Assembly (NCBI GenBank): GCA_948433885.1
Contig: CAOJEC010000004.1
Span: 1-49,775, forward strand
Direction of reading: 5' to 3'
DNA: 49,775 nt
Origin: an uncultured bacterium
Lineage (GTDB): Bacteria > Bacillota_I > Bacilli_A > RF39 > UBA660
Shown here: one piece after another, positions 2,223 to 35,825 of the stretch
Layout: every line of letters starts with the position of its first letter
How positions within the stretch are numbered: the stretch's first letter is position 1
Position numbers and translations under genes: made by a program
Notes under the pieces: model-generated
The model's input: the letters and a program-made list of their open reading frames with translations, nothing else
What the model was told of the DNA's origin: nothing
The model's database searches: none

Positions 2223-2519
2223 ATGATTAAACATTTAGAAAACGCAGCGGATTTTGAAAGTTTGACTAAAGAAAGATGCTTAGTGGATTTTTATGCCGAT
2301 TGGTGTGGACCATGTAAAATGATGGGAGCTCTTTTAGAAGAATTAGAGAGTAAACTTAGTATTCCTGTCATAAAAGTTAACACCGATAAATTCAATGAAC
2401 TATCTGCCAAGATGGGTATAATGAGCATTCCGACTTTGATCGTCATGGAAAACTCTAAAGAAGTCAAAAAAAACATCGGATTCATGTCTAAAGACGATCT
2501 AATAGAATTTATAAAATAG
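2223..2519 (+). CDS. trxA: Thioredoxin
   Basis: DFYADWCGPCK active site; cis-Pro motif SIPTL. Confidence 0.92.
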   Translation: MIKHLENAADFESLTKERCLVDFYADWCGPCKMMGALLEELESKLSIPVIKVNTDKFNELSAKMGIMSIPTLIVMENSKEVKKNIGFMSKDDLIEFIK

Positions 2520-2541
2520 ACCTTTAAATGGGTCTTTTTTT
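2518..2541 (+). terminator. Intrinsic terminator after trxA
   Basis: AGACC-loop-GGTCT followed by a T tract. Confidence 0.6.
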
Positions 2542-2565
2542 GTCCCCCTGGGAGTTATGTCAATA

Positions 2566-2612
2566 TTTGGTACACATTTCCTTTCAACACCCCCTCACTT
2601 TTGTGTACCAAA
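2566..2612. repeat. 11-bp perfect inverted repeat, 25-bp spacer
   Basis: TTTGGTACACA (2566-2576) / TGTGTACCAAA (2602-2612). Confidence 0.7.
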
Positions 2613-2628
2613 AATATTCTAACACCCC

Positions 2629-2659
2629 TTGACAAGTTGGTTCGGGGGGGGGGTATAAT
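2629..2659 (+). promoter_or_regulatory. Consensus sigma70 promoter with poly-G (G10) tract in the spacer
   Basis: TTGACA 2629-2634, TATAAT 2654-2659, 19-bp spacer containing G10 (2644-2653). Confidence 0.85.
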
Positions 2660-2789
2660 CTTGAGTAGATGATACAGTAGGCAAGATAATCGAATCGAAA
2701 AAGATGTTTTTTTAAAAAGGTACTACTTATAAAGTCAACTCGCCGTGGTCGTCAAGCTTTTTGTGTGTCTAAAAATGAGGAGTGATAAA

Positions 2790-4229
2790 ATGAATTTGAA
2801 AACGAAAAAAATGATATGTTTGCTAATCGCGATCGCATCGGTACTGACGATCGTAGGAAGTGTATCTTATGCATACTTCACTGCAATTGGAGAAGTAAGT
2901 CCTTTAGATGCTAAATTGGATACAGCTAATGTAAGTGTTACATTTAGAGACAACGATTTGGGATTGAGTGCTATATTGAACTTAGACGAATCGGTGACAA
3001 AGAAGTTCACTATCGAAAATACAGGGACAGTCGATGCTTCAGTTAAAATGTACTTCGATGAGATGATCAATACATATACCGAAGGGAGTTTGACATATAC
3101 GCTTTTCTACAGTGAAACAGGCGAAGAACCTTACACCGAAGTAGTAAGTACCAAAAATGTACCAGTAAGTTCTGCGAGAGTGAGAAAGACACTAGCTAAT
3201 GAACTCGTTATTCCATTAGGTAAAACATATTACTATTACCTGGAAGTGACTTTCAATCACTTAAAAGACGAGAACCAGGATAAAGACTTAGAAGCCATAT
3301 TCAATACAAAATTCAAAGTAGTAGATATCAAAGAAACCGAAAAGCGAACTTTAGTCTTCGATGCAGGAGAAGGAACCGTCGACATGGAAAATCTCACAGT
3401 AATAGACGGAGAACCGTATGGAGATTTACCTGAAGCCGCGATGTATGGATACAATTTCTTGGGATGGTTCACTGCAAGAGAAGGTGGAGTACAAATAACT
3501 TCGGATACGGTAGTCAATCTAACAAGTAGTCAAAATCTTTATGCTAAATTCGAACCTAAAATAATAAACGTCACACTAGATGCTAGAGGTGGTTACTTTG
3601 ATAACGATCAAAATATTCATACAAAAGTTATTCAAGTAAGATATGGAGACACTTACGGAGAACTCCCGGTTGTTAAAGGAGTACCGGCAGGAGAGTGTAT
3701 CTCCGACTCTAAAGGATGGTCATTGACTAAGCTTGAAAAAGACCTAATTCAAGCTGATACGAAAATAACAATTGCAGAAGATCATATTTTGTACGCCTAT
3801 GCTCCTATATGTTTATGTTTCTTAAAAGGAACATTAATTTACACACCAAATGGATATGTACCTATAGAAAACTTAAAAGTAGGCGAAGAAGTATATTCGT
3901 ATAATGAGAAGACAAAAGAAATAGAAATATCAAAATTGACTCATGTCTTCACAAGGCAAGTCACAAACTATTTGAAAGTTACATTAAAAACAGGAACAGT
4001 TATATATGTGACACCTGAACATCCTTTCTACGACAAAAAAACTGAAACATGGAAACCTATAAAAACATTCAAAGTTGGAGATAAATTAATGGACGAAGAA
4101 GGAAATGAAGTAGAAATATTCTCTATAGAGGAGAAAAACGAAGAAGTGACAGTATACAACTTAGAAGTCGATGGTAATCACGATTATTTCGTTTCAAAAG
4201 ATAACATATTAGTTCACAATAAATTCTGA
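2790..4229 (+). CDS. Secreted protein: SipW/TasA-type signal peptide, two InlB B (Listeria-Bacteroides) repeats, C-terminal Hint (intein-like/PT-HINT) domain
   Basis: RBS AGGAG before ATG 2790; signal ending SYAYFT. Repeats TLVFDAGEG..YGDLP..GYNFLGWF..LYAKF. Hint runs from CFLKGT through VTPEHPF and VYNLEV..HDYFV to ILVHN-KF-stop. Confidence 0.85.
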   Translation: MNLKTKKMICLLIAIASVLTIVGSVSYAYFTAIGEVSPLDAKLDTANVSVTFRDNDLGLSAILNLDESVTKKFTIENTGTVDASVKMYFDEMINTYTEGSLTYTLFYSETGEEPYTEVVSTKNVPVSSARVRKTLANELVIPLGKTYYYYLEVTFNHLKDENQDKDLEAIFNTKFKVVDIKETEKRTLVFDAGEGTVDMENLTVIDGEPYGDLPEAAMYGYNFLGWFTAREGGVQITSDTVVNLTSSQNLYAKFEPKIINVTLDARGGYFDNDQNIHTKVIQVRYGDTYGELPVVKGVPAGECISDSKGWSLTKLEKDLIQADTKITIAEDHILYAYAPICLCFLKGTLIYTPNGYVPIENLKVGEEVYSYNEKTKEIEISKLTHVFTRQVTNYLKVTLKTGTVIYVTPEHPFYDKKTETWKPIKTFKVGDKLMDEEGNEVEIFSIEEKNEEVTVYNLEVDGNHDYFVSKDNILVHNKF

Positions 4230-4262
4230 CCGCTCTAAATTGGTAAACTCACAATTCAGAAG

Positions 4263-4301
4263 AAAAACTTTAGGTATGTTAATGAAACCTAGAGTTTTTT
4301 T
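4263..4301 (+). terminator. Intrinsic terminator after the Hint gene
   Basis: AAAAACTTTAGGT / ACCTAGAGTTTTT stem with T tract. Confidence 0.65.
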
Positions 4302-4425
4302 ATTTTCAAATTTATCGAGTTTTTATGAAAATACACACAAATTAATTAAAGAATTTAAAGATGACAAATTGACTTTTTCTAAAGGCATATGCTATAATCG
4401 TTATTAGAATAGTGAGTGGGTCTAA

Positions 4426-5694
4426 ATGAAGAGAAAAGTAGTGTTAATCATCGCAATCATGCTCAGTTTTATATCTTTTGAAAACATAAGTGCTTGTGGT
4501 GAAATCAAAGAATTACATTCGTCAGTAGGAACAGTAAGTACGATAGGTGAAACAAAATACTTGGTAACTGTACCGAAAGGAACAAACGAAGTAACGCTGA
4601 CTGGTACGACCGACTATATTTGGGTTAAGGGTTACGAACCGAGAACTGTATCTACTAAAAATGGAACAGTCGAACTGAAAGTAGACGGCAATGCTTGTGG
4701 ATTCGGAACATACACATATTTTGTATCTTTCAAAGAAGAATCCGACATTATCGCCGACAACGAAGTCGAGCAACAAGATCCAGCACCTACCGACCAAGAA
4801 CCGGATCCTGCTCCAAGTGAACCAATCGACTATGGAGTTTTAGTACTCTCAAACTTAAAAATAAGTGGTGTCGACATTGCTTTCAATCCGGAGACACGTA
4901 TTTACGATATAGAAATAATCGATACTATAAGTAAATTAGACATCACTCCGACCACTCAAGACTCTTCTGTTACTGTAGAAATTTCTAGCAATGTAAACGA
5001 CTTAAAAAAAGGAATGAATACAGTTACAATTAAACTATCGGACCCCTATGGAAACACAGGTCTCTATGTATTGAACGTCAATAAAGTACAAAAAAAATCT
5101 TCAAATAACTTTTTAGCAGGACTTACCATCGAAAAATATCAATTGAATTTCGATCCATCAGTAACGGAATATACTGTAGAAATAGGAAAAGAATCCGTTT
5201 TGAATATCTCAGCAATCACCGAAAGTGAACTAGCTTCCTATGTAATTCTTGGAAACACTAACATTTCAGATGGTGATACTATTACAGTTCGTGTCACCGC
5301 GGAGAATGGCGAAACGAAAGACTACGTAATTACAGTAAAGAGAAAATTTAACATAATGGATTATTGGATTTTCATCGTCATCGGACTACTGTTATTCTTA
5401 TTGCTACTCGTATTTACGATTTCTAAAAACAAGAAAAATAAGAAAAAGATGGGACCAGAAACGATCCAAGGAGAAAACAATACAGCAGGAGTCATCCAAG
5501 ACGTAGGATCTCAAAATCAAAACTCTATACAAACCGAAGTTTTCTCACAAGACGGCATCCAAATGGCTCCGACGACTAGTACTCCAGGTACTTTAAGAAT
5601 AATAGAACCTACTAATTTGGATACACAACCTGTCAACAATGAAAATTCAGCAGTAGACGAGGACAAAAGTCCGACTGAAATATTTCAATTGTAA
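4426..5694 (+). CDS. Surface protein with cadherin-like beta-sandwich repeats and C-terminal TM anchor
   Basis: Signal peptide; repeats LSNLKISG..FNPETRIY and LAGLTIE..FDPSVTEY..VTAENGETKDYVITV; TM at WIFIVIGLLLFLLLLVF. Confidence 0.75.
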   Translation: MKRKVVLIIAIMLSFISFENISACGEIKELHSSVGTVSTIGETKYLVTVPKGTNEVTLTGTTDYIWVKGYEPRTVSTKNGTVELKVDGNACGFGTYTYFVSFKEESDIIADNEVEQQDPAPTDQEPDPAPSEPIDYGVLVLSNLKISGVDIAFNPETRIYDIEIIDTISKLDITPTTQDSSVTVEISSNVNDLKKGMNTVTIKLSDPYGNTGLYVLNVNKVQKKSSNNFLAGLTIEKYQLNFDPSVTEYTVEIGKESVLNISAITESELASYVILGNTNISDGDTITVRVTAENGETKDYVITVKRKFNIMDYWIFIVIGLLLFLLLLVFTISKNKKNKKKMGPETIQGENNTAGVIQDVGSQNQNSIQTEVFSQDGIQMAPTTSTPGTLRIIEPTNLDTQPVNNENSAVDEDKSPTEIFQL

Positions 5695-9323: not shown

Positions 9324-10736
9324 TCAAACGAAGAAACCCACCCATGGGTTTTTTCGTTTGAGTCGTTTTATCGCCTCCTCGATCGTCACATCGGCCGGCC
9401 CAACCTTGTCGAGCTCACTCCACTTGATGGGCATCGAAACGCGACATTTATCTTTGAGACGAATAGAGTAGGGAGCGACACTTGTTGCTCCTTTTGTATT
9501 TCTAACCCAATCTATGAATATCTTGTTCATCCTCTTGTTTTTTCTCATATTAGAAGAATACTTATCGGGCCACATCGCTTCCATAACTTTTGCCACATTT
9601 TGGGCAAATTCGCTCGCATCATCCCAATTCTTCAATTTGTCGATCGGGACTACCACATGATAGCCTTTCCCACCGCTCGTCTTCAAATAAGATTTCAAAG
9701 AAAACTCATCCAAGACACTTTTCAAATCTCTGACACCTTGTCGTATCTTCGATAAAGACATTCCTTCGTCGGGATCCAAATCGAAAACTAAAATATTCGG
9801 CTTATCTATATTTGCTATCGATGATCCCCATATGTGAAATTCGTAACTGTTCATTTGTACCTCTGAGATCAATCCTTCTTCATTTGTAATATGATAATAA
9901 TCTTCTTTGTTGCCGTTTTTACTAGGAATCATCATCTTGACTACACCACTATTAGAAGAGAAATTGTGCTTGGCAAAAAATTTTTCTCCACCCACACCTG
10001 AAGGCAATCTGACTGTGCTAAGTAGACGATTTTCTAAATAGGGTAACATACGTTTGGCAACCTTCTTATAATAAAGTGCAATGTCGTACTTTGTTATCGT
10101 CGGTTTTTCGAAGATATGCTTATCTGGGTTGCTTATTTCGACACCTTCGACAAGAAAGTCCTTTGCCGAATTTCGAACTCTTTTGATCTGCTTACCAGAA
10201 CTTATTTCACCCATAGTTCTATCAGTTCGCACGCTGCGATCGAAAGAAGATATGTCGTCATATAAGAAAACTCCATCTTTCTCTTTAATCAAAAGCCAAT
10301 TGTCCTCTTTGAATTTTACGAGAGTCCAAGATCCTTTTAGACGTTTTCCAAATAGACGGAATTTAAAAGAACCTGTTTTTATTTCGCCCTTTGCATTGCC
10401 ATCACATTCGTAAAAACCTTCATCCCAAATCATCACAGTCCCACCGCCATATTCTCCCTTCGGAATGGTTCCTTCGAAATCCTTGTAAGCATAAGGATGA
10501 TCTTCCACCTTGACAGCGAGACGTTTATCGCGAGTATTGTACGACGGCCCTTTAGGGACAGCCCAACTGACGAGAACACCACCGACCTCCAACCGAAAAT
10601 CGTAGTGATCTCTTCTAGCAGAGTGATGTTGAACGACGAATATATGCTTCTTTTTATTTGTTACTTTCTTTCCAATTGGCTCGGCTGTCGAATTGAAATT
10701 CCTTTTTTTATTGTATGCGCTCAAAGATTTTGTCAT
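9324..10736 (-). CDS. ligD: NHEJ LigD phosphoesterase-polymerase (PE-POL) fusion, no ligase domain
   Basis: PE motifs FVVQHH..HYDFRLE..SWAVPKGPS..VEDHP..YGGGTV; POL motifs VFDLDP, KTSGGKGYHV, FIDWVRN. Confidence 0.9.
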   Translation of the reverse strand: MTKSLSAYNKKRNFNSTAEPIGKKVTNKKKHIFVVQHHSARRDHYDFRLEVGGVLVSWAVPKGPSYNTRDKRLAVKVEDHPYAYKDFEGTIPKGEYGGGTVMIWDEGFYECDGNAKGEIKTGSFKFRLFGKRLKGSWTLVKFKEDNWLLIKEKDGVFLYDDISSFDRSVRTDRTMGEISSGKQIKRVRNSAKDFLVEGVEISNPDKHIFEKPTITKYDIALYYKKVAKRMLPYLENRLLSTVRLPSGVGGEKFFAKHNFSSNSGVVKMMIPSKNGNKEDYYHITNEEGLISEVQMNSYEFHIWGSSIANIDKPNILVFDLDPDEGMSLSKIRQGVRDLKSVLDEFSLKSYLKTSGGKGYHVVVPIDKLKNWDDASEFAQNVAKVMEAMWPDKYSSNMRKNKRMNKIFIDWVRNTKGATSVAPYSIRLKDKCRVSMPIKWSELDKVGPADVTIEEAIKRLKRKNPWVGFFV

Positions 10737-11629
10737 TTTTCATTCCTTTCTATCTCTTTTTGAAAAACCGGTTGTCTCAAGTGACCATTAGGTGTCCTTT
10801 CGATGAAGACAACTTCACACGAATATTTTCGATCGATGTAAAATGCTTTCTCTTCATCGTAATCTATAAAAGGAGATTTCTTTCTAGTTTTACATCTCTT
10901 CAATTTTTTATATAAAGGACTGTCCCTCATGACTGACACTTTACCAACAAAGTGAAATCTTTTACCTCGGTATTCTCCCAAAAGCAAAGAAGCTTTATGA
11001 GCGTTTTCTACAAAACCTCCGACTATAAAAATTTCTTTTTTAAAATTTTTAATCTTTATCCAATCTTTTGTACGAATTCCGGTTTCATAAATACTCGCTT
11101 TTTTCTTTGCGACGATTCCTTCTAATCCCATTTTGACTACTTGCTGAAAAAGATCTTTACCTTTTCCGGCGACATATTTTGTTTTGACGAATGTCTCCGT
11201 GTCGGGATATTTCGATAACATTTTTTTCCTGTCCAATAGAGGTAACTTTCTCAAGTCTTTTTTGTCATATAGACAATCGAACGCGACAAATGCGACCGGC
11301 TCCTCGCGACACATAGACTCGATTTTAGATTTGTCTTTGAGAAGATTTCGTTTTTGCAGTTTCGAAAAACTCGGCATACCATGTTCGAAAGAGACAATTT
11401 CACCATCAAAAATCACTTTATCGTCGACAATGTTGGCAATCTCTTGTAATTCGGGAAAAATATGAGTAATCTCGTTGCCTCGTCTAGTAAAAACATGAAC
11501 CACCTTAGGACTTGCATGAAGAGTTGCCCTGATGCCGTCGAACTTGAATTCGAAAATATAATCATCATCATCGAAAGGACTAGATTGCTCACTCAAAAGC
11601 ATCGGCTGAACAAAAGTATTGAATTTCAT
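10733..11629 (-). CDS. ATP-dependent DNA ligase (LigD ligase domain, stand-alone)
   Basis: PMLL, EFKFDGIRA (KxDG adenylation motif), FDGE, EGIVAKK, WIKIK. Confidence 0.88.
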   Translation of the reverse strand: MKFNTFVQPMLLSEQSSPFDDDDYIFEFKFDGIRATLHASPKVVHVFTRRGNEITHIFPELQEIANIVDDKVIFDGEIVSFEHGMPSFSKLQKRNLLKDKSKIESMCREEPVAFVAFDCLYDKKDLRKLPLLDRKKMLSKYPDTETFVKTKYVAGKGKDLFQQVVKMGLEGIVAKKKASIYETGIRTKDWIKIKNFKKEIFIVGGFVENAHKASLLLGEYRGKRFHFVGKVSVMRDSPLYKKLKRCKTRKKSPFIDYDEEKAFYIDRKYSCEVVFIERTPNGHLRQPVFQKEIERNEK

Positions 11630-12373
11630 CTAACTCTCCAAGCTCTTTTGTAAAGAAGACATCAAATCTTTGATAGACTCCTTTTTCTTTGCTTTCGTTT
11701 TCGATATAGGCTTGCCGTCGATCTTTTTATCAATGGAATCCTTGATACGATTTTGATAATCATCTTCGTATTTCTGAGGCGTAAAATGTCCTGAAAGATG
11801 CTCGACGAGCTTCAATGCCAAGTTGAGTTCTTCCTTCGAATATGATGCTTCGACGTTCGCCTCGGGAATATTCACTTCTTCATCAAAATACATCGTCGAC
11901 ATCAATATATTCCCGTCCATATACCTCAAAAGTACATAATAAAATTTGCTACTCAAAGCCGTTTTAGCGACCGCCACTTTTTTTGATTTTTTAAGAACTT
12001 CTAAAAAGAGAGAATAAGATTTCGATTTCTTAGGTGTTGAAAGCACATAACTTTTCTCATAGTAAATTGGACTTATTTCGCTTTCCGGCACAAAGGCGAC
12101 AATTTCGATAGTCCCTTTAGAGTCGACTTGAAAACTGTCGAGTTCTTCTTTAGTAAAAGTCACATATTTATCTTTCTCGTACTCGTATCCTTTTATGATG
12201 TCGGCTTCTTTCAAAGGTTTTTTACATTGCTCACAATATTTTTGATAATGTACACGGCTGAGACATTTTTTATGCAATTGATTGAAAGAAGTATCGTTGT
12301 TTTTTATGATGGGATTGTAGACGACAGGAATATTGACCAATCCGAAAGAAATTTCACTTTTCATATTTGCCAT
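11630..12373 (-). CDS. ku: Ku (NHEJ DNA end-binding protein)
   Basis: ISFGLVNIPV, IIKGYEYEKDKYV, YEDDYQNRI, DLMSSLQKSL. Confidence 0.9.
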   Translation of the reverse strand: MANMKSEISFGLVNIPVVYNPIIKNNDTSFNQLHKKCLSRVHYQKYCEQCKKPLKEADIIKGYEYEKDKYVTFTKEELDSFQVDSKGTIEIVAFVPESEISPIYYEKSYVLSTPKKSKSYSLFLEVLKKSKKVAVAKTALSSKFYYVLLRYMDGNILMSTMYFDEEVNIPEANVEASYSKEELNLALKLVEHLSGHFTPQKYEDDYQNRIKDSIDKKIDGKPISKTKAKKKESIKDLMSSLQKSLES

Positions 12374-15836: not shown

Positions 15837-16211
15837 TTGGAACACGCGATTTACTTTTTAATCTCGTTTGTAATAACTTACTTTGGACGATTATATCTTT
15901 TTAGAAGAAGTAACAAAGTGTCAAATAGATCTAAAAAAAAGGAGAAAAAAAAGGACAATACGAGTATAGAAATAAAATATTTGAGTTCGAAGTTTTCACT
16001 AGATAGAGATTCACTGAATACTAAAAAGATGAACTATCTAATAAGTGCGATAGACGCCTCGATCATCGCGATCGCATTCACTTTGGTAAGTTTTATCGAC
16101 GACATGATAGTCACCTTCACCGTAGGAATAATAACAGTGTTCGTTCTCATATATGTGTCCTATGAAATACTAGGAAAAATTTTAAAAAAGAAAGGAATTG
16201 AAAAAAAATGA
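15837..16211 (+). CDS. Small membrane protein of unknown function, first gene of the leuS operon
   Basis: RBS AAGGAGG then TTG 15837 (track start 15792 lies inside the terminator); 3 hydrophobic segments; stop overlaps leuS start (ATGA). Confidence 0.7.
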   Translation: MEHAIYFLISFVITYFGRLYLFRRSNKVSNRSKKKEKKKDNTSIEIKYLSSKFSLDRDSLNTKKMNYLISAIDASIIAIAFTLVSFIDDMIVTFTVGIITVFVLIYVSYEILGKILKKKGIEKK

Positions 16212-19060
16212 ATTATGACTTTAAAAACATCGAAAAAAAATGGCAAGAGAAATGGGAAAAAGAAGGTACATTTGTAGCCGAGAATGGTGGAGATAAAGAA
16301 AAGTACTATGTACTTGTAGAATTTCCATATCCAAGTGGAGTAGGCCTACACGTCGGTCATGTCCGCAGCTACACTGCTTTGGATTCACTAGCTCGTCTAA
16401 AAAGAGCACAAGGATATAACGTCTTGTTTCCTATGGGTTGGGATTCATTCGGTGCACCTGCTGAACAATATGCCATCAAAAACCACGTTTATCCAGCAAA
16501 CATGGTGAAAGACTGCATCGAAACTTTCAAAAGACAAATAAAAGCATTAGGTTCATCTTTCGATTGGACACGCGAATTTGCAACTACCGATCCCGAATAT
16601 TACAAATGGACTCAATGGCAATTTTTACAATTTTACAAAGCAGGACTCGCTTATAAGGCTGAGAAAGAAATAAATTGGTGTCCAAATTGTAAGACAGGCT
16701 TATCCAATGAAGATGCCGCTGGTGGAGTATGTGAACGATGTGGATCATCGACGACCAAGAAACTCAAAAATCAATGGATGCTCAAGATGAGTTCGTATGC
16801 TGATAGTTTATTAGATGGACTTGCAGAAACTGAATTTTGGGACAAAATAAAAATCGCTCAAATCAATTGGATAGGAAAGAGCACCGGGGCAGAAGTAAAT
16901 TTCAAAATGAAAGAAGTAGAAGATACTCTTACAGTTTTTACTACTAGATGCGATACACTATTCGGTGTAACTGCCATGGTTCTATCTCCAGAACATGAAT
17001 TTTTGAATAAATACGCAGACAAAATAAATAACATAGATGAAGTTCGTGCCTATCGAGAACAAACGCATAAGAAAAGTGAAATCGAAAGAACGGATATGAC
17101 TAAGGAAAAGACAGGCGTGAAGATCGATGGACTTACTGCCATCAATCCAGTTAACGGTGCCGAGATTGAAATTTGGATGTCCGATTATGTACTTGCAAGT
17201 TATGGTACTGGAGCCATCATGATGGTGCCTGCACACGATGATCGAGATTATGCTTTTGCAAAAAAATTCGATATACCTATCGTACAAGTTATAGCCAAGA
17301 ACTTCGTAGGTTCAGGAGACTCGACTATCAGACCAGATAAACCTTTCACCGATCGTCAAGTTGTAATAGCGGCAATCGCTCATCCGACTGAAGATAAATA
17401 TCTATGTGTCAAAAACAACAAATTTGGATGGATAAACTTCGTGATGGGCGGCATCGAAGGTGATGAAAACCCTATCGAGGCAGCAAAAAGAGAAATCATC
17501 GAAGAAACCGGGTATACTGAGATCGAGATCGAACGCGAAATGGAATTTGTCTACTTCGATAACTTCTTTGCTAGACATAAAGATGTCAATAGACATATAA
17601 CTTGCCACACTGTCGTCGGAAGATTGAAAAATCTAGATGCAATCGAAAGATCCGAAGAAGAAAGCGAACTCCAAGAAGTGATGTGGATCGATAAAGAAAA
17701 ATTAATCGAAACATTGAATACAAATGCACATAAGTACGACGCAACTCGTGCCTTAGAAGGCGACGGACCGTTGACCGAAGAAGGTGTTCATATCAATTCG
17801 GATTTCTTAGATGGTTTAGGAAAAGAAGAAGCAATTGAACGCATGCTAGAATTCCTAGAAGAAAAGGGTATAGGAAAAAAGACAACAAACTATCGTCTAC
17901 AAGATTGGATTTTCTCTCGTCAACGTTTTTGGGGTGAACCTATACCTATGATTCATTGTGAAAAATGTGGATGGGTGCCTGTACCTGAAGAAGAATTGCC
18001 ACTAATTTTGCCGGACGTTCCTTCTTACGAGCCTACTGATAATGGAGAAAGTCCTTTATCTACAGTAGACGAATGGGTGAATACGACTTGTCCTTCATGC
18101 GGAAATCACGCCGTCAGAGAAACCGATACGATGCCAAACTGGGCCGGGTCTAGCTGGTACTGGATCAGATACATGGATCCAAAATGTGACACCGCTATAG
18201 CAAACATGGATGCGATGAAATATTGGGGACAAGTAGATCTTTACAATGGTGGAATGGAACATGCGACGAGACATCTTCTCTATGCAAGATTTTGGAATCA
18301 AGTTCTCTTCGACAATGGAATAGTTCCTGTACGCGAACCGTTTAAAAAGAGAGTTGCTCACGGTATGATACTCGGTGAAAATAACGAGAAGATGAGTAAA
18401 AGCAAAGGCAATGTAGTCAATCCTGATGACATGTTCGAAACTTATGGTGCCGATGCACTTAGAACTTACGAGATGTTTATAGGAGACTACACTAAAGATG
18501 CCGCTTGGAGTGAAAACGGACTTAAAGGTTGTAAAAAGTTCTTGGATAGAATATTTAGACTTCAAACAAAACTGAATGATGATGAAGAGTATTCTAAAGA
18601 GTTGGAAGCTATGATCAATAAGACAATTAAAAAAGTTACCGAAGATATAGAAACTATGAACTATAATACTGCTGTGTCAGCACTGATGATTTTGTTGAAT
18701 GCATACGACAAACAAGAAAAAATTTCGCGAAAAGACTATCGTACTATTTTACAACTTTTGAATCCTATCGCCCCGCACGTAACTGAAGAATTGAACGAAA
18801 TATGTAAATTGGGTGTTCCGTTTACGTCAAGTGATTGGCCTATTTGTGACGAATCGAAAATAGTAGAAGACACTTATGAAATAGGAGTTCAAGTGAACGG
18901 AAAACTTCGTGGAAGTATAGTAGTAAGTGCTGATGAAAATGAAAACAGCATTAAAGAGAAAGCTCTAGCAAATGAAAATGTCATAAAACATATCGAAGGC
19001 AAAGAGATAATCAAAACCATCGTGATACCTAAAAGAATTGTCAGCATCGTAGTAAAATAA
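16208..19060 (+). CDS. leuS: Leucyl-tRNA synthetase with an inserted NUDIX hydrolase domain
   Basis: HVGH and KMSKS signatures; CP1 editing motifs TTRCDTLFG, GTGAIMMVPAHD; Nudix box GGIEGDENPIEAAKREIIEETGY at 17447-17515. Confidence 0.95.
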   Translation: MNYDFKNIEKKWQEKWEKEGTFVAENGGDKEKYYVLVEFPYPSGVGLHVGHVRSYTALDSLARLKRAQGYNVLFPMGWDSFGAPAEQYAIKNHVYPANMVKDCIETFKRQIKALGSSFDWTREFATTDPEYYKWTQWQFLQFYKAGLAYKAEKEINWCPNCKTGLSNEDAAGGVCERCGSSTTKKLKNQWMLKMSSYADSLLDGLAETEFWDKIKIAQINWIGKSTGAEVNFKMKEVEDTLTVFTTRCDTLFGVTAMVLSPEHEFLNKYADKINNIDEVRAYREQTHKKSEIERTDMTKEKTGVKIDGLTAINPVNGAEIEIWMSDYVLASYGTGAIMMVPAHDDRDYAFAKKFDIPIVQVIAKNFVGSGDSTIRPDKPFTDRQVVIAAIAHPTEDKYLCVKNNKFGWINFVMGGIEGDENPIEAAKREIIEETGYTEIEIEREMEFVYFDNFFARHKDVNRHITCHTVVGRLKNLDAIERSEEESELQEVMWIDKEKLIETLNTNAHKYDATRALEGDGPLTEEGVHINSDFLDGLGKEEAIERMLEFLEEKGIGKKTTNYRLQDWIFSRQRFWGEPIPMIHCEKCGWVPVPEEELPLILPDVPSYEPTDNGESPLSTVDEWVNTTCPSCGNHAVRETDTMPNWAGSSWYWIRYMDPKCDTAIANMDAMKYWGQVDLYNGGMEHATRHLLYARFWNQVLFDNGIVPVREPFKKRVAHGMILGENNEKMSKSKGNVVNPDDMFETYGADALRTYEMFIGDYTKDAAWSENGLKGCKKFLDRIFRLQTKLNDDEEYSKELEAMINKTIKKVTEDIETMNYNTAVSALMILLNAYDKQEKISRKDYRTILQLLNPIAPHVTEELNEICKLGVPFTSSDWPICDESKIVEDTYEIGVQVNGKLRGSIVVSADENENSIKEKALANENVIKHIEGKEIIKTIVIPKRIVSIVVK

Positions 19061-23553: not shown

Positions 23554-24189
23554 ATGAGTAAAATTTCTAATGGTGAGGGGTTTATCTATGTATATCCGTG
23601 TATAATGGGTGGTACAAAGAATCTTTGTAAGATAGGTGTAACTGACAATTTTAAGGAAAGGATGAGTCAGCATGTTCGCACTCCATATCATGGTTTCAAT
23701 TGCATGCTAAACTACCCTAGTTATAAACCTATTGCTACGGCTTTTCGAGTTAAGTCTATGAATATATCTGATAACTTAGTTAGGGATTATTTTAAAGATT
23801 ATCAATTGGCAGGAATCGAGGTATACAATATCAATTATAATGTTAGTATCCAAGAACTATATAACCTATTGTATAAGCACAACCAGTTTATTGAACTTAT
23901 AGAAGATAAGACTACTGATTATAGTTTTCTTGTACTAGAAGAAGAAGTTAAAATTGATACAACTAAGTCAGTTTTTGAAGAACTTAGAGATAAAATTTTA
24001 TCTAAGTATAATGATGAGCTACCAGATGAACTGCTTTTACTTCTAAGAGATGGTGAAGAATTTAAAACGCATTGTCCATCTCACAAAAATTTTATTGAGT
24101 TTCGAGATGGATTAGTATTAGATATTAGTGTTTGTAAAGCTAGTCGTGCTTTATTGCTAAATAAGTTACAAGAAATATTAAAGGAGTGA
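23554..24189 (+). CDS. GIY-YIG-like T5orf172/MUG113-domain protein
   Basis: GFIYVY...LCKIGVTDNFKERMSQH. Confidence 0.65.
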   Translation: MSKISNGEGFIYVYPCIMGGTKNLCKIGVTDNFKERMSQHVRTPYHGFNCMLNYPSYKPIATAFRVKSMNISDNLVRDYFKDYQLAGIEVYNINYNVSIQELYNLLYKHNQFIELIEDKTTDYSFLVLEEEVKIDTTKSVFEELRDKILSKYNDELPDELLLLLRDGEEFKTHCPSHKNFIEFRDGLVLDISVCKASRALLLNKLQEILKE

Positions 24190-24470
24190 TTTTTATGTTT
24201 ACTGATTGTTTTGAGGACAGGATTCTAATAATTTTGGAATCAATATTTATTACATGTTCGGCTGTTTTATTATTTCCTTATAACAAAATGATTGCAGTTG
24301 ATATTTGTAGAGCAACACAAATACCCTATGATCTAGTTTTATCAGTTACATCAGCTGGATTTGGTAACAACATTATTATATTGTTATTTGTTGTTGAGAT
24401 TGTATTAGTTGTTCTATTTATTGAAAAATTTATTCCAACATGTATTGAAAGATTAGTTTGGGATTATTGA
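24186..24470 (+). CDS. Small membrane protein
   Basis: Two hydrophobic segments; overlaps upstream stop (GTGA). Confidence 0.45.
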   Translation: MIFMFTDCFEDRILIILESIFITCSAVLLFPYNKMIAVDICRATQIPYDLVLSVTSAGFGNNIIILLFVVEIVLVVLFIEKFIPTCIERLVWDY

Positions 24471-24490
24471 TTTTAAAGGAGTTGTATGTT

Positions 24491-25138
24491 GTGAAAAAGA
24501 AATTAATTATTTTAGGAATTATTATTATTCCAATTATTACTATTATTGCTATGCAAATACCAAAATGGACTAATCAGAATAAGTTTAAAGAGATATTTGA
24601 TGATACTTCTATACTGGCAAATGGATATACCTATCATGGTCTTACTTATTTAGACATCCACTCTAATCAGTTTAGAATGAAATATAGTGATTATGATACA
24701 AAAATTGTTAAAGGATCTGACATAGAAATCAAAGGAACTGTCAAAGTAAAGGATTCTAATACTTTAATACTTACCTATGATGGTGGTTCGATAACATGTT
24801 CAGTTTTAAATATTAATGTTTTAGACTGTGATGGTGCAGTTTTTAGAAGATATGATGGTCAATATGGGGATGAGAAAAAATGTGAATTAAGTCCTACCGA
24901 GTCAGAAAATGTAATTGCTGCTGGTTGGGATGATGCTTATGCAAATAGACAGGGTGCTAGTTATAATAACCCTTATGAGAAAACTGATCCTTGTTATCAA
25001 GAATATGATGGTGATTATTATACAGGTGTTTATAATGGTTACTTAAGAAATAAAATGTCTGTTAGTACCTATGAAATAATAGTAAAGGGACATAGTTGTT
25101 TAAGTATGGATGGCAACTGCTACAATGTTAAGAGGTGA
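24491..25138 (+). CDS. Membrane-anchored/secreted hypothetical protein, Cys-containing
   Basis: GTG 24491 after AAGGAG; MKKKLIILGIIIIPIITIIA N-terminal anchor. Confidence 0.65.
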   Translation: MKKKLIILGIIIIPIITIIAMQIPKWTNQNKFKEIFDDTSILANGYTYHGLTYLDIHSNQFRMKYSDYDTKIVKGSDIEIKGTVKVKDSNTLILTYDGGSITCSVLNINVLDCDGAVFRRYDGQYGDEKKCELSPTESENVIAAGWDDAYANRQGASYNNPYEKTDPCYQEYDGDYYTGVYNGYLRNKMSVSTYEIIVKGHSCLSMDGNCYNVKR

Positions 25139-25144
25139 TAAATT

Positions 25145-26227
25145 ATGAGTAAGAAACAAATTAAAAATATTGATGTAGATCAGGATATTGTTAAACCTAT
25201 AAAGAAGAAAAATAAGCATATTTTATTAAAGGTTCTTTTAGTTATTATAATTGTTATAATACTATTCTTTAGCTATAGCTTTATTAAGCAGAAGTTATAT
25301 CAAACTAGAAGTCAGAAGATGACTGAGGAGGTTAATGAGATACAAAAGGATAAGGTAGATTATGTTTTTATTGAGATTAACCCTTTTCTTGTTCTAACTA
25401 TTAAAGATGGTACTGTAGAAGATGTGGCATGCCTTAATGATGACTGTGTTTCCATTTATAATGAAATCAAAATTGCAGGTAAAAATATTGATGATAGTAT
25501 TGATTATTTATATGATTTAGCCAAGTCAAAAGGTTTTGATACTTCTAATGGAGTTAAAGTTAGAGCAACTGGAAATGTATATATTGAGAAAAAGGATTAT
25601 GTTATTGTTGAGTATATTTCAGTAGCAGATAAAGAGGTATTGCTAGCTGATTTGAAGAACAATGAGAGTATAAAAAATAGTAATAATGATGGTTATTACA
25701 CTACCCTATGGGATAAGTTAAAAGCAGATGGTGACTATGGTGATGTATATTCTTGTAGTATGAATAATGAAGAATTAGAATGTTATTTTACTGAGAAATT
25801 TATATCGAATATTTTTGATGAAAAACAACTAGTTTTAGATTACGTAGGATTGGAAAATCAAATCAATAAGTTTTTCAATACACTTGATAAATTTAGAATA
25901 AAACACACAAAGAAAGATGATACCGAATATATTTCCATTAATTATAATGAATATGTTGCTACAGGTAGTATTCAAATAGAAGATAAAGAGATATTAGCTA
26001 ATGTTTTATCGAGAAAAATTGAACATCAGAATTCAAGTTCTTCTTATGAGGAATGTTTACTTGCCGATACATATGAATACGTTGATTTGAAAGATTTTAA
26101 TCTTTTAAATCCTAATGATGCTAATAAGATTAAAAGATATACACCTGAGCGAGTAATTAAAGATTGTAAAGAAGTAGAAATGATTAATAATTGTTTGACT
26201 GGTAATGGTCCATGTGATTTAGAATAA
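25145..26227 (+). CDS. Membrane-anchored protein with RsgI-type juxtamembrane domain
   Basis: Single TM, then VFIEINPFLVLTIKDGTVEDVACLNDD...GKNIDDSIDYLYDLAKSKGF, resembling the RsgI (V/I)xIDINP...ALNED...L..KGY domain. Confidence 0.6.
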   Translation: MSKKQIKNIDVDQDIVKPIKKKNKHILLKVLLVIIIVIILFFSYSFIKQKLYQTRSQKMTEEVNEIQKDKVDYVFIEINPFLVLTIKDGTVEDVACLNDDCVSIYNEIKIAGKNIDDSIDYLYDLAKSKGFDTSNGVKVRATGNVYIEKKDYVIVEYISVADKEVLLADLKNNESIKNSNNDGYYTTLWDKLKADGDYGDVYSCSMNNEELECYFTEKFISNIFDEKQLVLDYVGLENQINKFFNTLDKFRIKHTKKDDTEYISINYNEYVATGSIQIEDKEILANVLSRKIEHQNSSSSYEECLLADTYEYVDLKDFNLLNPNDANKIKRYTPERVIKDCKEVEMINNCLTGNGPCDLE

Positions 26228-26236
26228 GAAAGAAGT

Positions 26237-26917
26237 GTGATGGTTATGTTTAAGATTATATTAGGTTTGGTTCAGCAACATATTGCTGCAACTATTATTG
26301 TTAGTGTTGTAGTGGTAGTTGGTGCTGTTGCTACTCCTGTTATCTTATTGAACGTCAAAGATGAACCAAAGCCAAATAAAGATATTAAAGAAGAAGTTAA
26401 ACAAGATGATCAAGAGGCGGAGGTCATAGAACAAGAGCCCGAATTGAACGAAGATGGGTGTCCTGTAGGTTTCTTTTTGAACTACTATGGTATATGTCAG
26501 GATGAGCACCTTTACGAGCCACAGGAGTGCCCAGATGGTGAAATGTGGTGGCCAAATAATATGGCAGAGTATACTAAAGATAATGGTGATGGAACTGTGT
26601 CACCAGATTATGAGGCTGCATTTGGTATTGATGGTTTACCTAAAGGAATTTGTGTAAGAGATTATGAAGCACAAGATGCTTGGTATAAGTCACATGGATA
26701 TCCTGGTATGAATCCAAAGGATAGAGAATTATATAATCATATTAATGATTGTGAACGTGGTTTTAGTTATGATTCAGATACAAAGACTTGTGTAGATAAG
26801 ACAGCTTGGTATCGTATGAGATATGAGAAAGAAGTTCTTAGTAAACATGATCCAAAGGATGATTTACCAAAATGTTCTGAACGATCTGAAACTGATCAGG
26901 CTTGTCTTAAGGATTAA
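26237..26917 (+). CDS. Membrane-anchored Cys-rich extracellular protein
   Basis: N-terminal TM, acidic linker, repeats GCPVGF..GIC, ECPDGE, DCERGF..TC. Confidence 0.6.
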   Translation: MMVMFKIILGLVQQHIAATIIVSVVVVVGAVATPVILLNVKDEPKPNKDIKEEVKQDDQEAEVIEQEPELNEDGCPVGFFLNYYGICQDEHLYEPQECPDGEMWWPNNMAEYTKDNGDGTVSPDYEAAFGIDGLPKGICVRDYEAQDAWYKSHGYPGMNPKDRELYNHINDCERGFSYDSDTKTCVDKTAWYRMRYEKEVLSKHDPKDDLPKCSERSETDQACLKD

Positions 26918-27052
26918 AGAGATATTTAATATAAGTCATATTAATGAGAAAGAAGCACTTAACTAGTTGCTTCTTTTACCAATTGTATGGCTGTAATAAT
27001 AATTATTTATGGTATAATTTGTATAATGAAATATAGTTAGGAGGTTACCAAT

Positions 27053-28033
27053 GTGACTAAGAAGATTAATTTTAGGAAGATAGAGACTATGATCCCAGAG
27101 GATATATTCATTTCTAATATAGCACATCTTATTGGTGATGTAAAAAATGTAACACTAGAAGTTAGATTTGATAGTATTAATTCTTTTGAAGTTGATGATA
27201 CTATGTTTGTTCTTCTTGAGATGCATGATGCTGCTTGCAATAAAATTAAAGGTTTAATGGTTGGTGCAAGAGATAATGATTTTAAGACTTTAGTAAAAAA
27301 TATTAATATAGATACCAAATACAGAGTTAGTGGTAATGTTTCTTTATTAGATAAAGGATCGTACGATGAAGAGTTGCCTTTTAAAATTAATGATGATAGA
27401 GTATTTTGTATTTATGCCTTACAAAATTATGGTGAGACTTTATTTGGTGTAGATTTAGATGAGTTGTATTGTAATGGTGATTCTAAGATGGCATACAATT
27501 TGGTTAAAAGTAATACCAGTTATTTAAATAACATTTCTTTAGAAGATGTTGAGATGATTGAATTCTCTTGTTATAAAGATATCATAGTGCTATTGAAAGA
27601 TGGTACTCTATATGTAAATGGTGAGAAGAAATTTGATAATATTGTGTATGTTGCTTTTATAGATATTGATTGTGTTTTTGCAATAAGTACTGATAGAGTT
27701 ATAACTTGTTTAACTAGTAAGAAGAAAGATGCTAGAGATGCTATTAATAATCACGATTATAGATATAAGAAAGTAATTGTAACAGGTACAGGAATTGTTG
27801 CCTTAACTTATGATAGAACAGTTAGATATTATGGACATTTTATAAAAGAGTGCATTTTTGGAGAATACTTAGTTGATGTGGATGATATAGGAATAGTAGA
27901 TAAATATACTTCTGATGTTGTTGTTATTAAAGGAGACATGGCTTATTCCTTATTTATGACATACCCACCTTATCGAGTATCGGATATAACATTATTAAGT
28001 TATTGCAATAGAGGTGGAGATTTTGTTATTTAA
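27053..28033 (+). CDS. Hypothetical OB-fold plus beta-repeat protein (paralog A)
   Basis: N-terminal VTLEVRF..DTMFVLLEMHD..YRVSGNV OB-like pattern; paralog of 28637-29608. Confidence 0.55.
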   Translation: MTKKINFRKIETMIPEDIFISNIAHLIGDVKNVTLEVRFDSINSFEVDDTMFVLLEMHDAACNKIKGLMVGARDNDFKTLVKNINIDTKYRVSGNVSLLDKGSYDEELPFKINDDRVFCIYALQNYGETLFGVDLDELYCNGDSKMAYNLVKSNTSYLNNISLEDVEMIEFSCYKDIIVLLKDGTLYVNGEKKFDNIVYVAFIDIDCVFAISTDRVITCLTSKKKDARDAINNHDYRYKKVIVTGTGIVALTYDRTVRYYGHFIKECIFGEYLVDVDDIGIVDKYTSDVVVIKGDMAYSLFMTYPPYRVSDITLLSYCNRGGDFVI

Positions 28034-28110
28034 ACATTAGATTTAGTTTTTAACTATACCTTCTTTGTGATGATTTGACTTTTTCTTTTTGTAAAAGGAA
28101 GTGATTTAAG

Positions 28111-28554
28111 ATGAATATAGAAAAAGATTATGATTTGGATAGGTTTATTGAGGCACACAATGATGATTATAATAGAGCATTAAACGAAGTAAAAAGCGGA
28201 AGAAAATTAACTCATTGGATGTGGTACATTTTTCCTCAGATAGCTGGTTTAGGTATGAGTGAAACCGCAAAGTATTATGAGATTAAGAGTTTAGATGAGG
28301 CAAGAGCTTATTTAAATAATGAGTTATTAAAAGACCATATAATTGAAATATCAAATGCTTTATTAGAACTTTATACAAATGATCCAGTAGAAGTATTTGG
28401 CGATATTGATGCTTTGAAGTTAAAATCGTCTATGACTCTATTTTCTTATATATCCAATAATGAAATATTTAATAAAGTTATAGACAAATATTTTAATGGT
28501 AATAAAGATTTAACTACTGTTAGAATATGTGAAGAATTGAAAGCAGGAAGTTGA
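28111..28554 (+). CDS. DUF1810-family protein
   Basis: LDRFIEAH..ALNEVKSGRKLTHWMWYIFPQIAGLG.S..Y.IKSLDEA.AYL; KLKSSMTLF. Confidence 0.88.
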   Translation: MNIEKDYDLDRFIEAHNDDYNRALNEVKSGRKLTHWMWYIFPQIAGLGMSETAKYYEIKSLDEARAYLNNELLKDHIIEISNALLELYTNDPVEVFGDIDALKLKSSMTLFSYISNNEIFNKVIDKYFNGNKDLTTVRICEELKAGS

Positions 28555-28636
28555 TTTGCTTCTATTGAGGAATAGGGATACAAATATTAATTATTTATGG
28601 TATAGTTTAAGTATGATTAAGGAGGTTATTGATGTG

Positions 28637-29608
28637 GTGACTAAGATGAAGATTAATTTTAGGAAGATAGAGACCACGATTCCAGAGAACGTATTTATTT
28701 CTCATATTGATGGATTAATTGGCAAAGTTAAGAATGTTACACTTGAGGGAAAGTTTCATAATATGAAAGTCTATGAGATTGAAGATACTATGTTTGTGCT
28801 TGTACAATTTGTTGATTGTAGTGGAACAATTCCTGCAGTATTTGTTGGTAATAGAAATAATGAGTTTAAATCATTTGTAGAGGGTATCATTATGAATACT
28901 GACTATAGAATTAGTGGCAATGTTTCTTTACTGAATGATGATTTGTTAGATGAAGTTCTACCATTCCAGGATGAGATTACAGGAAACAAGATTTTTTGTA
29001 TTACTGCATTACAAGATTTAAGAAGTATCAGATTGTTTGGTGTTGATATTGTAAAATTATATGATTATGATTTACATAATGCATATGATATTGTTAATGA
29101 TAATACTGATTATTTAAAGGATGTATCCATTGATGAAGTTAAAGATATCAAATTTTCTTGTTATAAAGATGTTATTATTTTATTAAATAATGGCATAGTC
29201 TTATTAAATGGTAAGAACCAGTTATCTAATATAAAGACACTAGGATTAATGAGTGGACTTTCTATCTTTGCATTTAGTAATGATAATGTTATTACTTGTC
29301 TTACTGGAGTATGGGATTCTACTGAATTTATGAATAATAACAATTATAAGTATAAGAAGATAATTATTACACCACTTATAATAGTGGCATTAACTTTTGA
29401 AAAAGATATAAGATTGTTTGGTACCTTATGTGATAATGTTATTGATTATAATAGGTATGTTGGTGTAGATGATATCGGATATGTAAATGAGGAACATGAT
29501 ATTGTCGTTATTAAGGATGGTAAGGTTTATTCTTTATTCCATGAGAATGATTATTCTAATAATAAGCCAAAGGTATTGACTGCTGGAGATTTAATTGAGA
29601 TAGCTTGA
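28637..29608 (+). CDS. Hypothetical OB-fold plus beta-repeat protein (paralog B)
   Basis: GTG after GGAGG; KINFRKIET.IPE..FIS and FSCYKD, NYKYKKIII shared with paralog A. Confidence 0.55.
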   Translation: MTKMKINFRKIETTIPENVFISHIDGLIGKVKNVTLEGKFHNMKVYEIEDTMFVLVQFVDCSGTIPAVFVGNRNNEFKSFVEGIIMNTDYRISGNVSLLNDDLLDEVLPFQDEITGNKIFCITALQDLRSIRLFGVDIVKLYDYDLHNAYDIVNDNTDYLKDVSIDEVKDIKFSCYKDVIILLNNGIVLLNGKNQLSNIKTLGLMSGLSIFAFSNDNVITCLTGVWDSTEFMNNNNYKYKKIIITPLIIVALTFEKDIRLFGTLCDNVIDYNRYVGVDDIGYVNEEHDIVVIKDGKVYSLFHENDYSNNKPKVLTAGDLIEIA

Positions 29609-29798
29609 TTTTTACTTTCTTTTTAAGATAGATTTCACAATCTATCTTTTATTGGCACTAAAATCGTTGCAATTAGTTGTAGAACATGGTTAAACAAAGA
29701 AGAGCTTATATTCTGCTTATATGTTTAACTATCTAAGATATGGTCTTCAATGGGCCAATAATGGGGTTAAATTGTAGCTCTTATTTTTTTACCTAGGG

Positions 29799-29914
29799 GT
29801 GTCAAATTAAACTATTGATTAATTGGACACTCATGTTAAGGGGAAATTATATGTCATTTAAGCGGAAAATAAGCCAAAACTGTCTAATAAATTCAAACAG
29901 GGATTTTTTGGACA
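29799..29914. promoter_or_regulatory. Putative res site of the serine resolvase
   Basis: GTGTCAAATT..AATTGGACAC (29799-29830) and TGTCTAA..TTGGACA (29881-29914) imperfect dyads directly upstream of the resolvase. Confidence 0.55.
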
Positions 29915-29936
29915 CTTGGAGAAAGGATTGATTATT

Positions 29937-30554: not shown

Positions 30555-30582
30555 GAAGCTACTTTTTGATGGTAGCTTCTTT
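30554..30582. terminator. Bidirectional terminator between convergent genes
   Basis: AAGAAGCTAC / GTAGCTTCTT. Confidence 0.65.
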
Positions 30583-31961: not shown

Positions 31962-32121
31962 AAGGGCTTAAGCTCCTTTCTTTTTTGCTCAAAATAATTA
32001 TGTAATGCTATTGTAATGCTTATTTTTATTGTTTGTCAATAGGTCATGAGATAATTTTCTTGTCAAGCACCAATGCTGCGCAGCTTTATGCTTGTAATAA
32101 AAAATTAAGGAGGTTGAATTT

Positions 32122-33760: not shown

Positions 33761-33838
33761 AGTTAAGTCATTATTGTGGCTGTAAAGTTAAGAAAATAAA
33801 GGGGTTGTGCTCTTTATATAAGAGCTTATAAGAAAGGG

Positions 33839-35341: not shown

Positions 35342-35484
35342 TATTAATAGGTTGACTTTAAGACCTATTTAAGTGATATATGTAAAGAATTTTAACTAGT
35401 TTTAGCTGGTTAGCACTCAAAAATAATCCAATAGGGTTGCTGGTGATTTTGCAGCAACTATGAATGAAGAAAGGGTGATTTATA

Positions 35485-35814: not shown

Positions 35815-35825
35815 GGTGATGTGGT

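Follow-up and report, generated by a model that had tools for sequence, protein, structure and literature searches.

The window analysed here is a 49,775-nucleotide (nt) stretch of contig CAOJEC010000004.1 (GCA_948433885.1, forward strand, 31% GC), and the open reading frame (ORF) at 2790-4229 on its plus strand is a real gene. It starts with ATG at 2790 and encodes 479 amino acids (aa). The source is an uncultured gut Firmicute of low GC content, and the product, putatively a surface or matrix protein, ends in an intact, full-length Hint domain of the A-type bacterial intein-like (BIL)/PT-HINT type, with a non-nucleophilic +1 residue and no C-extein (Table 1). Pfam PF07591 (PT-HINT) matches residues 349-477 over model positions 1-136 of 137 (E 8.3e-19), the Intein_splicing and Hint_2 models also score above their own cut-offs, and NCBIfam places intein_Nterm at residues 343-414 and intein_Cterm at residues 455-477. 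The best sequence match in the PDB is 2lwy_A, a bacterial intein-like domain from Clostridium thermocellum (E 3.7e-20, residues 343-477). An alignment-based AlphaFold model of the protein has a predicted local distance difference test score (pLDDT) of 86. Its Hint superimposes on 2LWY with a template-modelling (TM) score of 0.92 and a root-mean-square deviation of 1.3 Å, the best structural match in Foldseek; Tetrahymena BIL2 follows, then mini-inteins and Hedgehog, and the best 50 matches listed for the whole model are all Hint domains. Cys343, Thr408, His411, His464, His476 and Asn477 are invariant in the aligned family (12 of 12 for Cys343, Thr408 and His411), and the +1 residue, Lys478 here, is K, V or Y throughout and thus non-nucleophilic. 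No homing endonuclease insert was found in the Hint. An earlier note on this DNA had listed Cys1, TPEH, block F and His-Asn, followed by Lys-Phe and the stop codon, and all these positions were verified.

Searching with the whole protein gave 173 relatives, 12 of which carry a Hint; all 12 end 2-9 residues past His-Asn. In all, some 17 Hint-bearing relatives were found, down to 42% identity, and 15 have an intact terminal His-Asn with tails of 2-9 residues (KF, KLVC, KVC, KTC, KTIVC, KT, KGV, KGGAI, KITDSGTIN, KLDSGTLN, VY, VVTTG, YGSQL and KASNN). Three tandem copies at locus L004 end in KTIVC, KTC and KT, and copies on the genome or metagenome contigs L011, L012 and L013 end in KGV, VVTTG and KASNN. 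The catalytic residues are unchanged although the relatives are only 42-50% identical overall. For pairs with unsaturated synonymous sites the ratio of non-synonymous to synonymous substitution rates (dN/dS) is 0.11-0.22 in the Hint, the same as or below that of the preceding domain (0.17-0.38); judged by these ratios, the Hint is under purifying selection. The 332-aa protein P0012 was considered as a natural paralog lacking the Hint and was rejected. It is the front half of the third tandem L004 copy (2332-3793), which is frameshifted between N-extein and Hint, and the Hint is intact in the other frame.

No toxin domain or immunity-like neighbour gene was found in the window or in any Hint-bearing relative, and neither the window nor the relatives hold a toxin cassette array or orphan toxin cassettes. 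The genes 3′ of the Hint encode a cadherin-like lipoprotein in the window, RimP and NusA in L003, RNase J in L027, an aminotransferase in L001 and RimM in L002. In the window 195 nt separate the stop codon at 4229 from the next gene and contain the terminator-like hairpin and the promoter of that gene; no toxin remnant was found in 4230-4425. Extension past the stop by read-through or frameshift was rejected, since reading through TGA adds only two codons before TAA. Because relatives with an intact His-Asn stop 2-9 residues on, with neither a toxin nor an immunity gene, the window copy is not a truncated toxin. None of the surveyed homologs runs past His-Asn into a toxin, which disposes of the objection, foreseen in the earlier note, that this copy had been cut short.

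A search with the Hint alone, accepting E values of at most 1e-3, retrieved 23,276 cluster representatives, and the terminal layout was surveyed in the 119 best representatives outside the family whose last Hint ends in His-Asn. Of these nearest representatives, 23 (19%) end within 10 residues of His-Asn and 46 within 25; the layout is therefore less unusual than had been implied, the near-terminal Hint being shared by 23 of the 119. Some Rhs-type representatives likewise stop at HN-K, and the residue after Asn is Lys in about 65% (roughly two thirds) of related Hints, whether or not sequence follows. No description of the present architecture, a TasA/SipW-type surface protein ending in a Hint, was found in the literature searched. 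We note that many proteins (P0121-P0268) have two to eight BIL/Hint domains in a row, with linkers of only 1-5 residues (K, KG, KGG, KC, KF) between them and often followed by Gly/Ser-rich low-complexity regions. One tandem-Hint protein has KF itself between Hints, so the tail of the window protein resembles these linkers. A metagenome-assembled genome from rabbit gut (Lapin-012 bin34) has eight copies (L014-L021) of a second family with a terminal Hint, whose proteins are about 515 aa long. Their N-extein is unrelated and includes a GYAAFNT signal and a CARDB-like domain. After the Hint, seven copies carry a hypervariable tail of about 20 aa with one Cys (e.g. DEMGAYPIGITPPCKGTFW) and the eighth ends YYSL; these hypervariable tails may be peptides released by the Hint.

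Ahead of the Hint lie a signal peptide, a β-sandwich module and two further β domains. The A-Y-F motif at the predicted cleavage site is almost invariant across the family. The TasA cleavage site is also described with Phe at P2′ (PMC10269814). In the model the first ten or so residues of the mature protein are probably disordered (residues 25-37 have pLDDT below 50), the one feature that would hint at donor-strand fibre assembly. Taken alone, the window protein matches TIGR04090 at 22 bits, below the cut-off of 60, and PF12389 (camelysin/TasA) with E 0.034. Among 21 diverse N-terminal modules of the family, 18 match PF12389, the best with E 1.6e-7. The top PDB matches of the family profile are TasA structures (8aur, 5of1), with E of only 0.11, and in that alignment SYA|YF falls on the TWA|AF cleavage site of TasA. 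The module is thus best described as a remote TasA/camelysin-like β-sandwich, and affiliation with the SipW/TasA system is supported by comparison across the family. The earlier call of a secreted TasA/SipW-type protein stands as far as the cleavage motif and the family-wide PF12389 matches are concerned; the protein's own domain match stays below the curated threshold. The same 180-aa module recurs in more than 100 paralogs of about 505 aa, at 55-76% identity, with other C-terminal domains and often in tandem arrays. At L025 (6903-13097) and L026 there are four tandem paralogs of 498-521 aa whose N-terminal modules are 65-72% identical to that of the window protein; their C-terminal domain of about 320 aa has no Pfam match, and a divergently transcribed helix-turn-helix gene adjoins. 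The InlB-type repeats named in the earlier note are borne out by the Flg_new match and by a second, similar domain in the model. No LPXTG motif, transmembrane segment or other C-terminal anchor was found in the window protein.

Table 1 Features of the Hint-terminated gene, with positions in the window
Feature	Position	Strand	Details
Sigma-70-type promoter	2629-2659	+	TTGACA 2629-2634, TATAAT 2654-2659; 19-nt spacer holding the G10 tract
G10 homopolymer in promoter spacer	2644-2653	+	candidate slipped-strand switch; fills 3′ half of spacer
Shine-Dalgarno GAGGAG	2777-2782	+	7 nt 5′ of ATG 2790; read directly
Signal peptide, aa 1-28	2790-2873	+	ends GSVSYA|YFTA; SipW/TasA-type motif, Phe at P2′; helix modelled over residues 3-31
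TasA/camelysin-like β-sandwich, aa 29-180	2874-3329	+	TIGR04090 E 1e-4; PF12389; AlphaFold model
InlB B-repeat/Flg_new domain 1, aa 185-256	3342-3557	+	PF09479 at aa 187-253, E 1.3e-13; modelled strands 185-256
Second, divergent Flg_new-like β domain, aa 258-337	3561-3800	+	includes Cys303; model pLDDT 80-97; conserved in family alignment
N-terminal splice junction Cys341-Leu342|Cys343	3810-3818	+	scissile bond Leu342-Cys343; Cys343 (CFLKGT) at 3816-3818, invariant 12/12
A-type BIL/PT-HINT domain, aa 343-477	3816-4220	+	Cys1; block B TxxH = T408-P-E-H411; block F H464; terminal H476-N477, ending at 4220
Tail Lys478-Phe479 and TGA	4221-4229	+	tail 4221-4226, TGA 4227-4229; no C-extein domain
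Terminator-like hairpin then U-run	4261-4301	+	fold -15 kcal/mol, z -3.6

The earlier note had also suggested that an extra Cys two residues before Cys1 may take part in the reaction; comparison with the relatives points away from this. Cys341 (3810-3812) is not conserved as a position in the family alignment and was rejected as a catalytic residue. In the clade of 480-490 aa (the window protein, P0002-P0004 and L004), each of the six members has exactly one extra Cys within five residues of one or other splice junction. Four have it in the tail, at +3 to +5; the other two, whose tails have no Cys, have it at -2 or -4. All six have a further Cys at -38 or -40 (Cys303 in the window protein, 3696-3698). 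Across the family the Cys residues outside the signal peptide, other than Cys1, are always even in number (0 or 2), which argues for a disulfide partner rather than a catalytic role. The pattern suggests that Cys303 forms a disulfide with Cys341 or its equivalent in the tail, which would fasten the last repeat domain to the junction or tail and leave Cys1 free. An effect of redox state on processing is possible.

The gene is a self-contained cassette with its own promoter and terminator. The trxA (thioredoxin) gene upstream has a terminator at 2518-2535, and a GTG at 2745 is unlikely as an alternative start. The promoter was read from the sequence itself; the consensus scan accepts spacers of 16-18 nt only and therefore did not list it. 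The loop of the hairpin likewise exceeds what the consensus terminator scan accepts. Further upstream, a 14-nt inverted repeat (2563-2576/2602-2615, 93% complementary, ATATTTGGTACACA/TGTGTACCAAAAAT) stops 13 nt 5′ of the -35 element, with 2616-2628 in between, and may be an operator or a recombination site. Immediately 5′ of the -35 element the window and L007 share the motif AAATATTCTAAC, and L018 has the near-identical AAATATTCTAAA.

Phase variation through a homopolymer in the promoter spacer is familiar from surface genes of, for example, Neisseria or Mycoplasma. The G10 tract is the only run of G or C of at least 8 nt in the window, where 0.11 would be expected by chance at this GC content. 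The same arrangement of -35 element, poly-G tract and TATAAT is found in L007, in L015 (twice) and in L018. As assembled, the tract and spacer are G10 and 19 nt in the window, G9 and 15 nt in L007, G17 and 24 nt in the first gene of L015, G12 and 19 nt in the second, and G14 and 20 nt in L018. L003, an allele of 89% identity, has an interrupted tract (G6-A-G3) in an 18-nt spacer, and L020 and L021 have decayed tracts in spacers of 18 nt. Several copies of the L014-L021 family have promoter tracts of G12-G17, and the contig of a third allele (L027) breaks inside the G tract. Because the tract differs in length among homologous promoters (G9 to G17), phase variation of the cassette by slippage in the promoter spacer is supported, in line with the earlier note; with the 19-nt spacer, as assembled, the promoter is probably weak or off. 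In the lineage of L005 (about 1020-1120) and L010 (about 1-85), three to four tandem copies of a 17-nt unit, aaaagaagtccggataa, stand directly 5′ of the Hint-terminated genes and occupy the place of the poly-G promoter.

The cassette does not keep its neighbours. The 88.8% identity between window and L003 DNA is confined to the stretch that starts at the -35 element and stops at the Lys codon following His-Asn. Outside the cassette the sequences are unrelated: the window has trxA and the cadherin-like gene, L003 has type IV secretion genes and rimP, and L027 has RNase J; the cassette, promoter included, therefore occupies different genomic places. In L003 (1-9854) it directly follows conjugation genes (VirB4-like, TraG/VirD4-like coupling protein, M23/lysozyme hydrolase), which hints that this genome may carry an integrative element for which the copy serves as mating adhesin. 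L001, L002 and L008 have a four-gene operon with the Hint-terminated gene in last place; the first three genes encode, in order, a 198-aa TasA-like protein, a SipW-type signal peptidase (TIGR02228 E 1e-26; SipW model E 1e-21) and a 276-aa membrane protein. The sipW, small TasA-like and 276-aa membrane proteins of L002 have no tblastn match in the window, which also has no paralog of its Hint protein. The nearby sipW anticipated in the earlier note thus exists in the operon of these relatives and is absent from the window, so that the peptidase must be encoded elsewhere in the genome.

The gene directly downstream, 4426-5694 (+), does not accompany the cassette in the relatives. Its 422-aa product has a lipobox-like signal (ISA|C), cadherin-like β-sandwich domains and, at the C-terminus, a transmembrane segment with a Lys-rich stop-transfer sequence. 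With its mature N-terminal Cys this protein was considered as a general acceptor and rejected, since it is unlinked in L003, L027, L001 and L002, and since ISAC is a lipobox, so that the thiol would be lipidated. Elsewhere in the window are a Ku/ATP-dependent ligase/LigD primase-polymerase-phosphoesterase operon for non-homologous end joining (9324-12373, minus strand) and a 950-aa leucyl-tRNA synthetase (16208-19060, plus strand) whose editing domain is followed by an inserted NUDIX domain (aa 385-509, E 8e-12). Genes of mobile-element type occupy 23554-36941 (T5orf172; resolvase, 29916-30554; DnaB/KaiC-like ATPase, 33839-35341; tyrosine integrase, 35826-36941). The segments 36758-36899 and 44193-44868 match L001 and L002 at 72-82%.

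Hint domains are known to do one of three jobs: splicing in inteins, toxin release in PT-HINT proteins, and ligation of the N-terminal part to a nucleophile in Hedgehog and the ciliate BUBL proteins. Since nothing follows the Hint in this conserved bacterial architecture, splicing and toxin release are excluded, and ligation of the N-terminal part becomes testable in bacteria. A-type BIL domains (Amitai 2003 and Dassa 2004, as cited in PMC7765530) form a thioester at the N-terminal junction and, with no +1 nucleophile, reportedly self-cleave at their N- and C-terminal ends in vitro rather than splice canonically (PMC7765530, PMC5874633). For the window protein we propose that slippage of the G10 tract would switch expression, and that the product would be exported by Sec and cleaved after Ala28 by a SipW-type peptidase. 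Residues 29-342, with the TasA-like module and the two InlB-type repeats, would then serve as an adhesin or fibre-associated subunit, as the domain content suggests. The Hint would act as a single-turnover autoprocessing module. By analogy with characterised BIL domains, an N-to-S acyl shift at Cys343 would place Leu342 in a thioester, Asn477 would cyclise and shed the Lys-Phe tail, and the 135-aa Hint would depart. The thioester would finally acylate an amine, either in a peptidoglycan stem peptide or, at a Lys residue or the N-terminus, in a partner protein or subunit, with a host molecule as a further possible acceptor. The outcome would be an ATP-independent extracellular covalent attachment, like that of Hedgehog to cholesterol or of Tetrahymena BIL2 to lysine.

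Autoprocessing that depends on Cys343 is likely, given the conserved residues, and the proposed course as far as the departure of the Hint also appears to us probable. The full course, with transfer as the purpose of the Hint, is a tentative proposal to which we give somewhat less than an even chance. A stop codon at the junction would yield the product of hydrolysis at no cost, yet the domain is kept, so the thioester chemistry is probably used; retention of the domain in all lineages, and in a second N-extein family, points the same way. The covalent anchoring suggested in the earlier note is accordingly worded here as an attractive, unproven hypothesis with a precedent in Tetrahymena BIL2, which, according to its depositors, transfers its N-extein to the ε-amines of Lys residues in several substrates through isopeptide bonds (PMC8616854, section 2.4). 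A wider proposal, that SipW-exported TasA-like proteins with a terminal BIL/Hint form a phase-variable, extracellular, ATP-free ligation system that is present in many other Hint-ended proteins, is by analogy conceivable and rather doubtful.

Several points weigh against the proposed course. We infer both autocleavage and any acceptor in this family from sequence. No acceptor-binding region follows the Hint, nor anything equivalent to the region by which Hedgehog recognises sterols; apart from the sipW operon in one lineage, no conserved partner gene was found, and the 49.8-kb window has no sipW at all. Homopolymer lengths from metagenome assemblies are error-prone. In L007 the last Hint strand (ILVHN, about 1790-1900) is replaced by an unrelated 38-aa tail; this copy and the frameshifted one in L004 may be pseudogenes or assembly errors. 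The invariance of His-Asn despite a tail of 2-9 aa is explained by none of the models. In polymorphic toxins PT-HINT domains are interpreted simply as releasing peptidases (PMC3482391). This last interpretation, the missing acceptor-binding region and partner gene, and the cleavage of A-type BILs at both ends in vitro (PMC7765530) also favour hydrolysis alone. The Hint would then be a transient maturation module, for instance a cap that delays folding, polymerisation or adhesion until after export, and would be discarded to leave a free carboxylate on Leu342. We consider this unlikely, if the most serious rival. Its product would be that of a gene ending at codon 342, and a 137-aa domain that is under purifying selection and kept in two unrelated N-extein families needs a benefit, of which none is evident for a cap.

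The conserved Cys1, TxxH and His-Asn and the low dN/dS would equally be expected of a self-excising parasite. Such a passenger would remove itself, or rejoin the tail by A-type BIL aminolysis, and its residues would be conserved, as in an intein, since failed excision harms the host protein. Splicing of A-type BILs by an alternative route without a +1 nucleophile has been reported (PMC5874633), and the likeness of the tail to inter-Hint linkers suggests descent from tandem-Hint arrays. A terminal Hint, unlike an internal intein, can however be lost at no cost by any nonsense mutation near the junction, and some 17 diverged copies keep theirs; the only ORF found to lack the Hint is the frameshifted copy, and there is no homing endonuclease. 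We regard a passenger as improbable. That the invariant residues are exactly the catalytic ones (Cys343, Thr408, His411, His476 and Asn477) makes it very improbable that the Hint stays unprocessed as a folded C-terminal binding or docking domain. Nothing direct speaks for such a role, although Hint folds are compact β domains able to bind ligands. Hardly credible at all is a truncated or 'empty' polymorphic toxin, with toxin domain and immunity gene lost from the window copy. The best Pfam match is the pre-toxin HINT, homology to L003 stops right after HN-K, where toxin cassettes usually swap, and the Rhs-type representatives that stop at the same point could be cited in its favour. Against it, every relative with an intact terminal His-Asn ends 2-9 aa later, the genes downstream are unrelated housekeeping or surface genes (cadherin-like, rimP, RNase J, aminotransferase, rimM), and the interval after the stop codon is free of any remnant.

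If the thioester is transferred, as proposed above, the Hint would provide a new sortase- and ATP-free way of fixing surface proteins covalently in cells of the Gram-positive type. It would be a bacterial counterpart of Hedgehog cholesteroylation, serving anchoring or adhesion independently of sortase, and would amount to a natural expressed-protein-ligation chemistry at the cell surface. The proportion of nearest cluster representatives with a terminal Hint (19%) suggests that the layout is common. Even if hydrolysis is all that happens, a multi-copy family with swappable C-terminal domains and promoters switched by poly-G tracts is a clear candidate for an antigenic or adhesive variation system in uncultured gut Firmicutes.

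We class the domain as an A-type BIL/PT-HINT; the gene itself we place neither with the polymorphic toxins nor with the inteins or the Hedgehog-type proteins. It differs from a canonical intein in its +1 residue (Lys, not Cys, Ser or Thr), in the missing C-extein and in its host, which is a variable surface protein. With the polymorphic toxins (PF07591; Zhang et al. 2012, PMC3482391) it shares the Pfam family, Sec export and a Hint at the edge of conservation, whereas the window protein and its relatives have no toxin domain, immunity gene or cassette array. Hedgehog/Hog proteins also carry a C-terminal Hint on a secreted protein, which excises itself so that the remaining N-terminal part acquires a modified C-terminus. 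Hog, however, has a sterol-recognition region and no terminal His-Asn, while nothing follows the Hint in the window, and the Pfam Hint model PF01079 gives the window protein only 17.8 bits against a cut-off of 29.7. Sortase and internal-thioester (TIE) adhesins offer a functional analogy only: they too rely on ATP-free extracellular covalent chemistry through acyl or thioester intermediates, but the window protein has neither LPXTG nor a Cys-Gln thioester domain. To the TasA/CalY-SipW fibres of Bacillus the gene is linked by the A|xF motif, by an N-terminal module remotely related to Peptidase_M73 and by the sipW operon of its relatives. That homology is very remote, and the protein differs in its extra InlB repeats and Hint and in the absence of sipW from the window; fibre formation is putative here. 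The promoter resembles those of the Neisseria and Mycoplasma type in having a homopolymer between the -35 and -10 elements whose length varies among homologous promoters, here known from assembled loci. The BIL2 domain of the Tetrahymena BUBL protein (6TMM, 6Y75) is the second-best structural match, with a TM score of about 0.8, and conjugates its N-extein to a Lys ε-amine without ATP; the +1 residue in the window is itself Lys. BIL2 is eukaryotic, intracellular, flanked by ubiquitin-like domains and 22% identical, and the window Hint has no acceptor domain after it. The described A-type BILs are discussed as lying between flanking regions, whereas the window Hint is terminal, with a tail of 2-9 aa in the family, and is fused to a SipW/TasA-type module. 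With the A-type BILs, represented by the structure 2LWY, it shares a length of about 135 aa, the lack of an endonuclease, Cys1, TxxH, His-Asn, a non-nucleophilic +1 residue and a variable secreted host protein.

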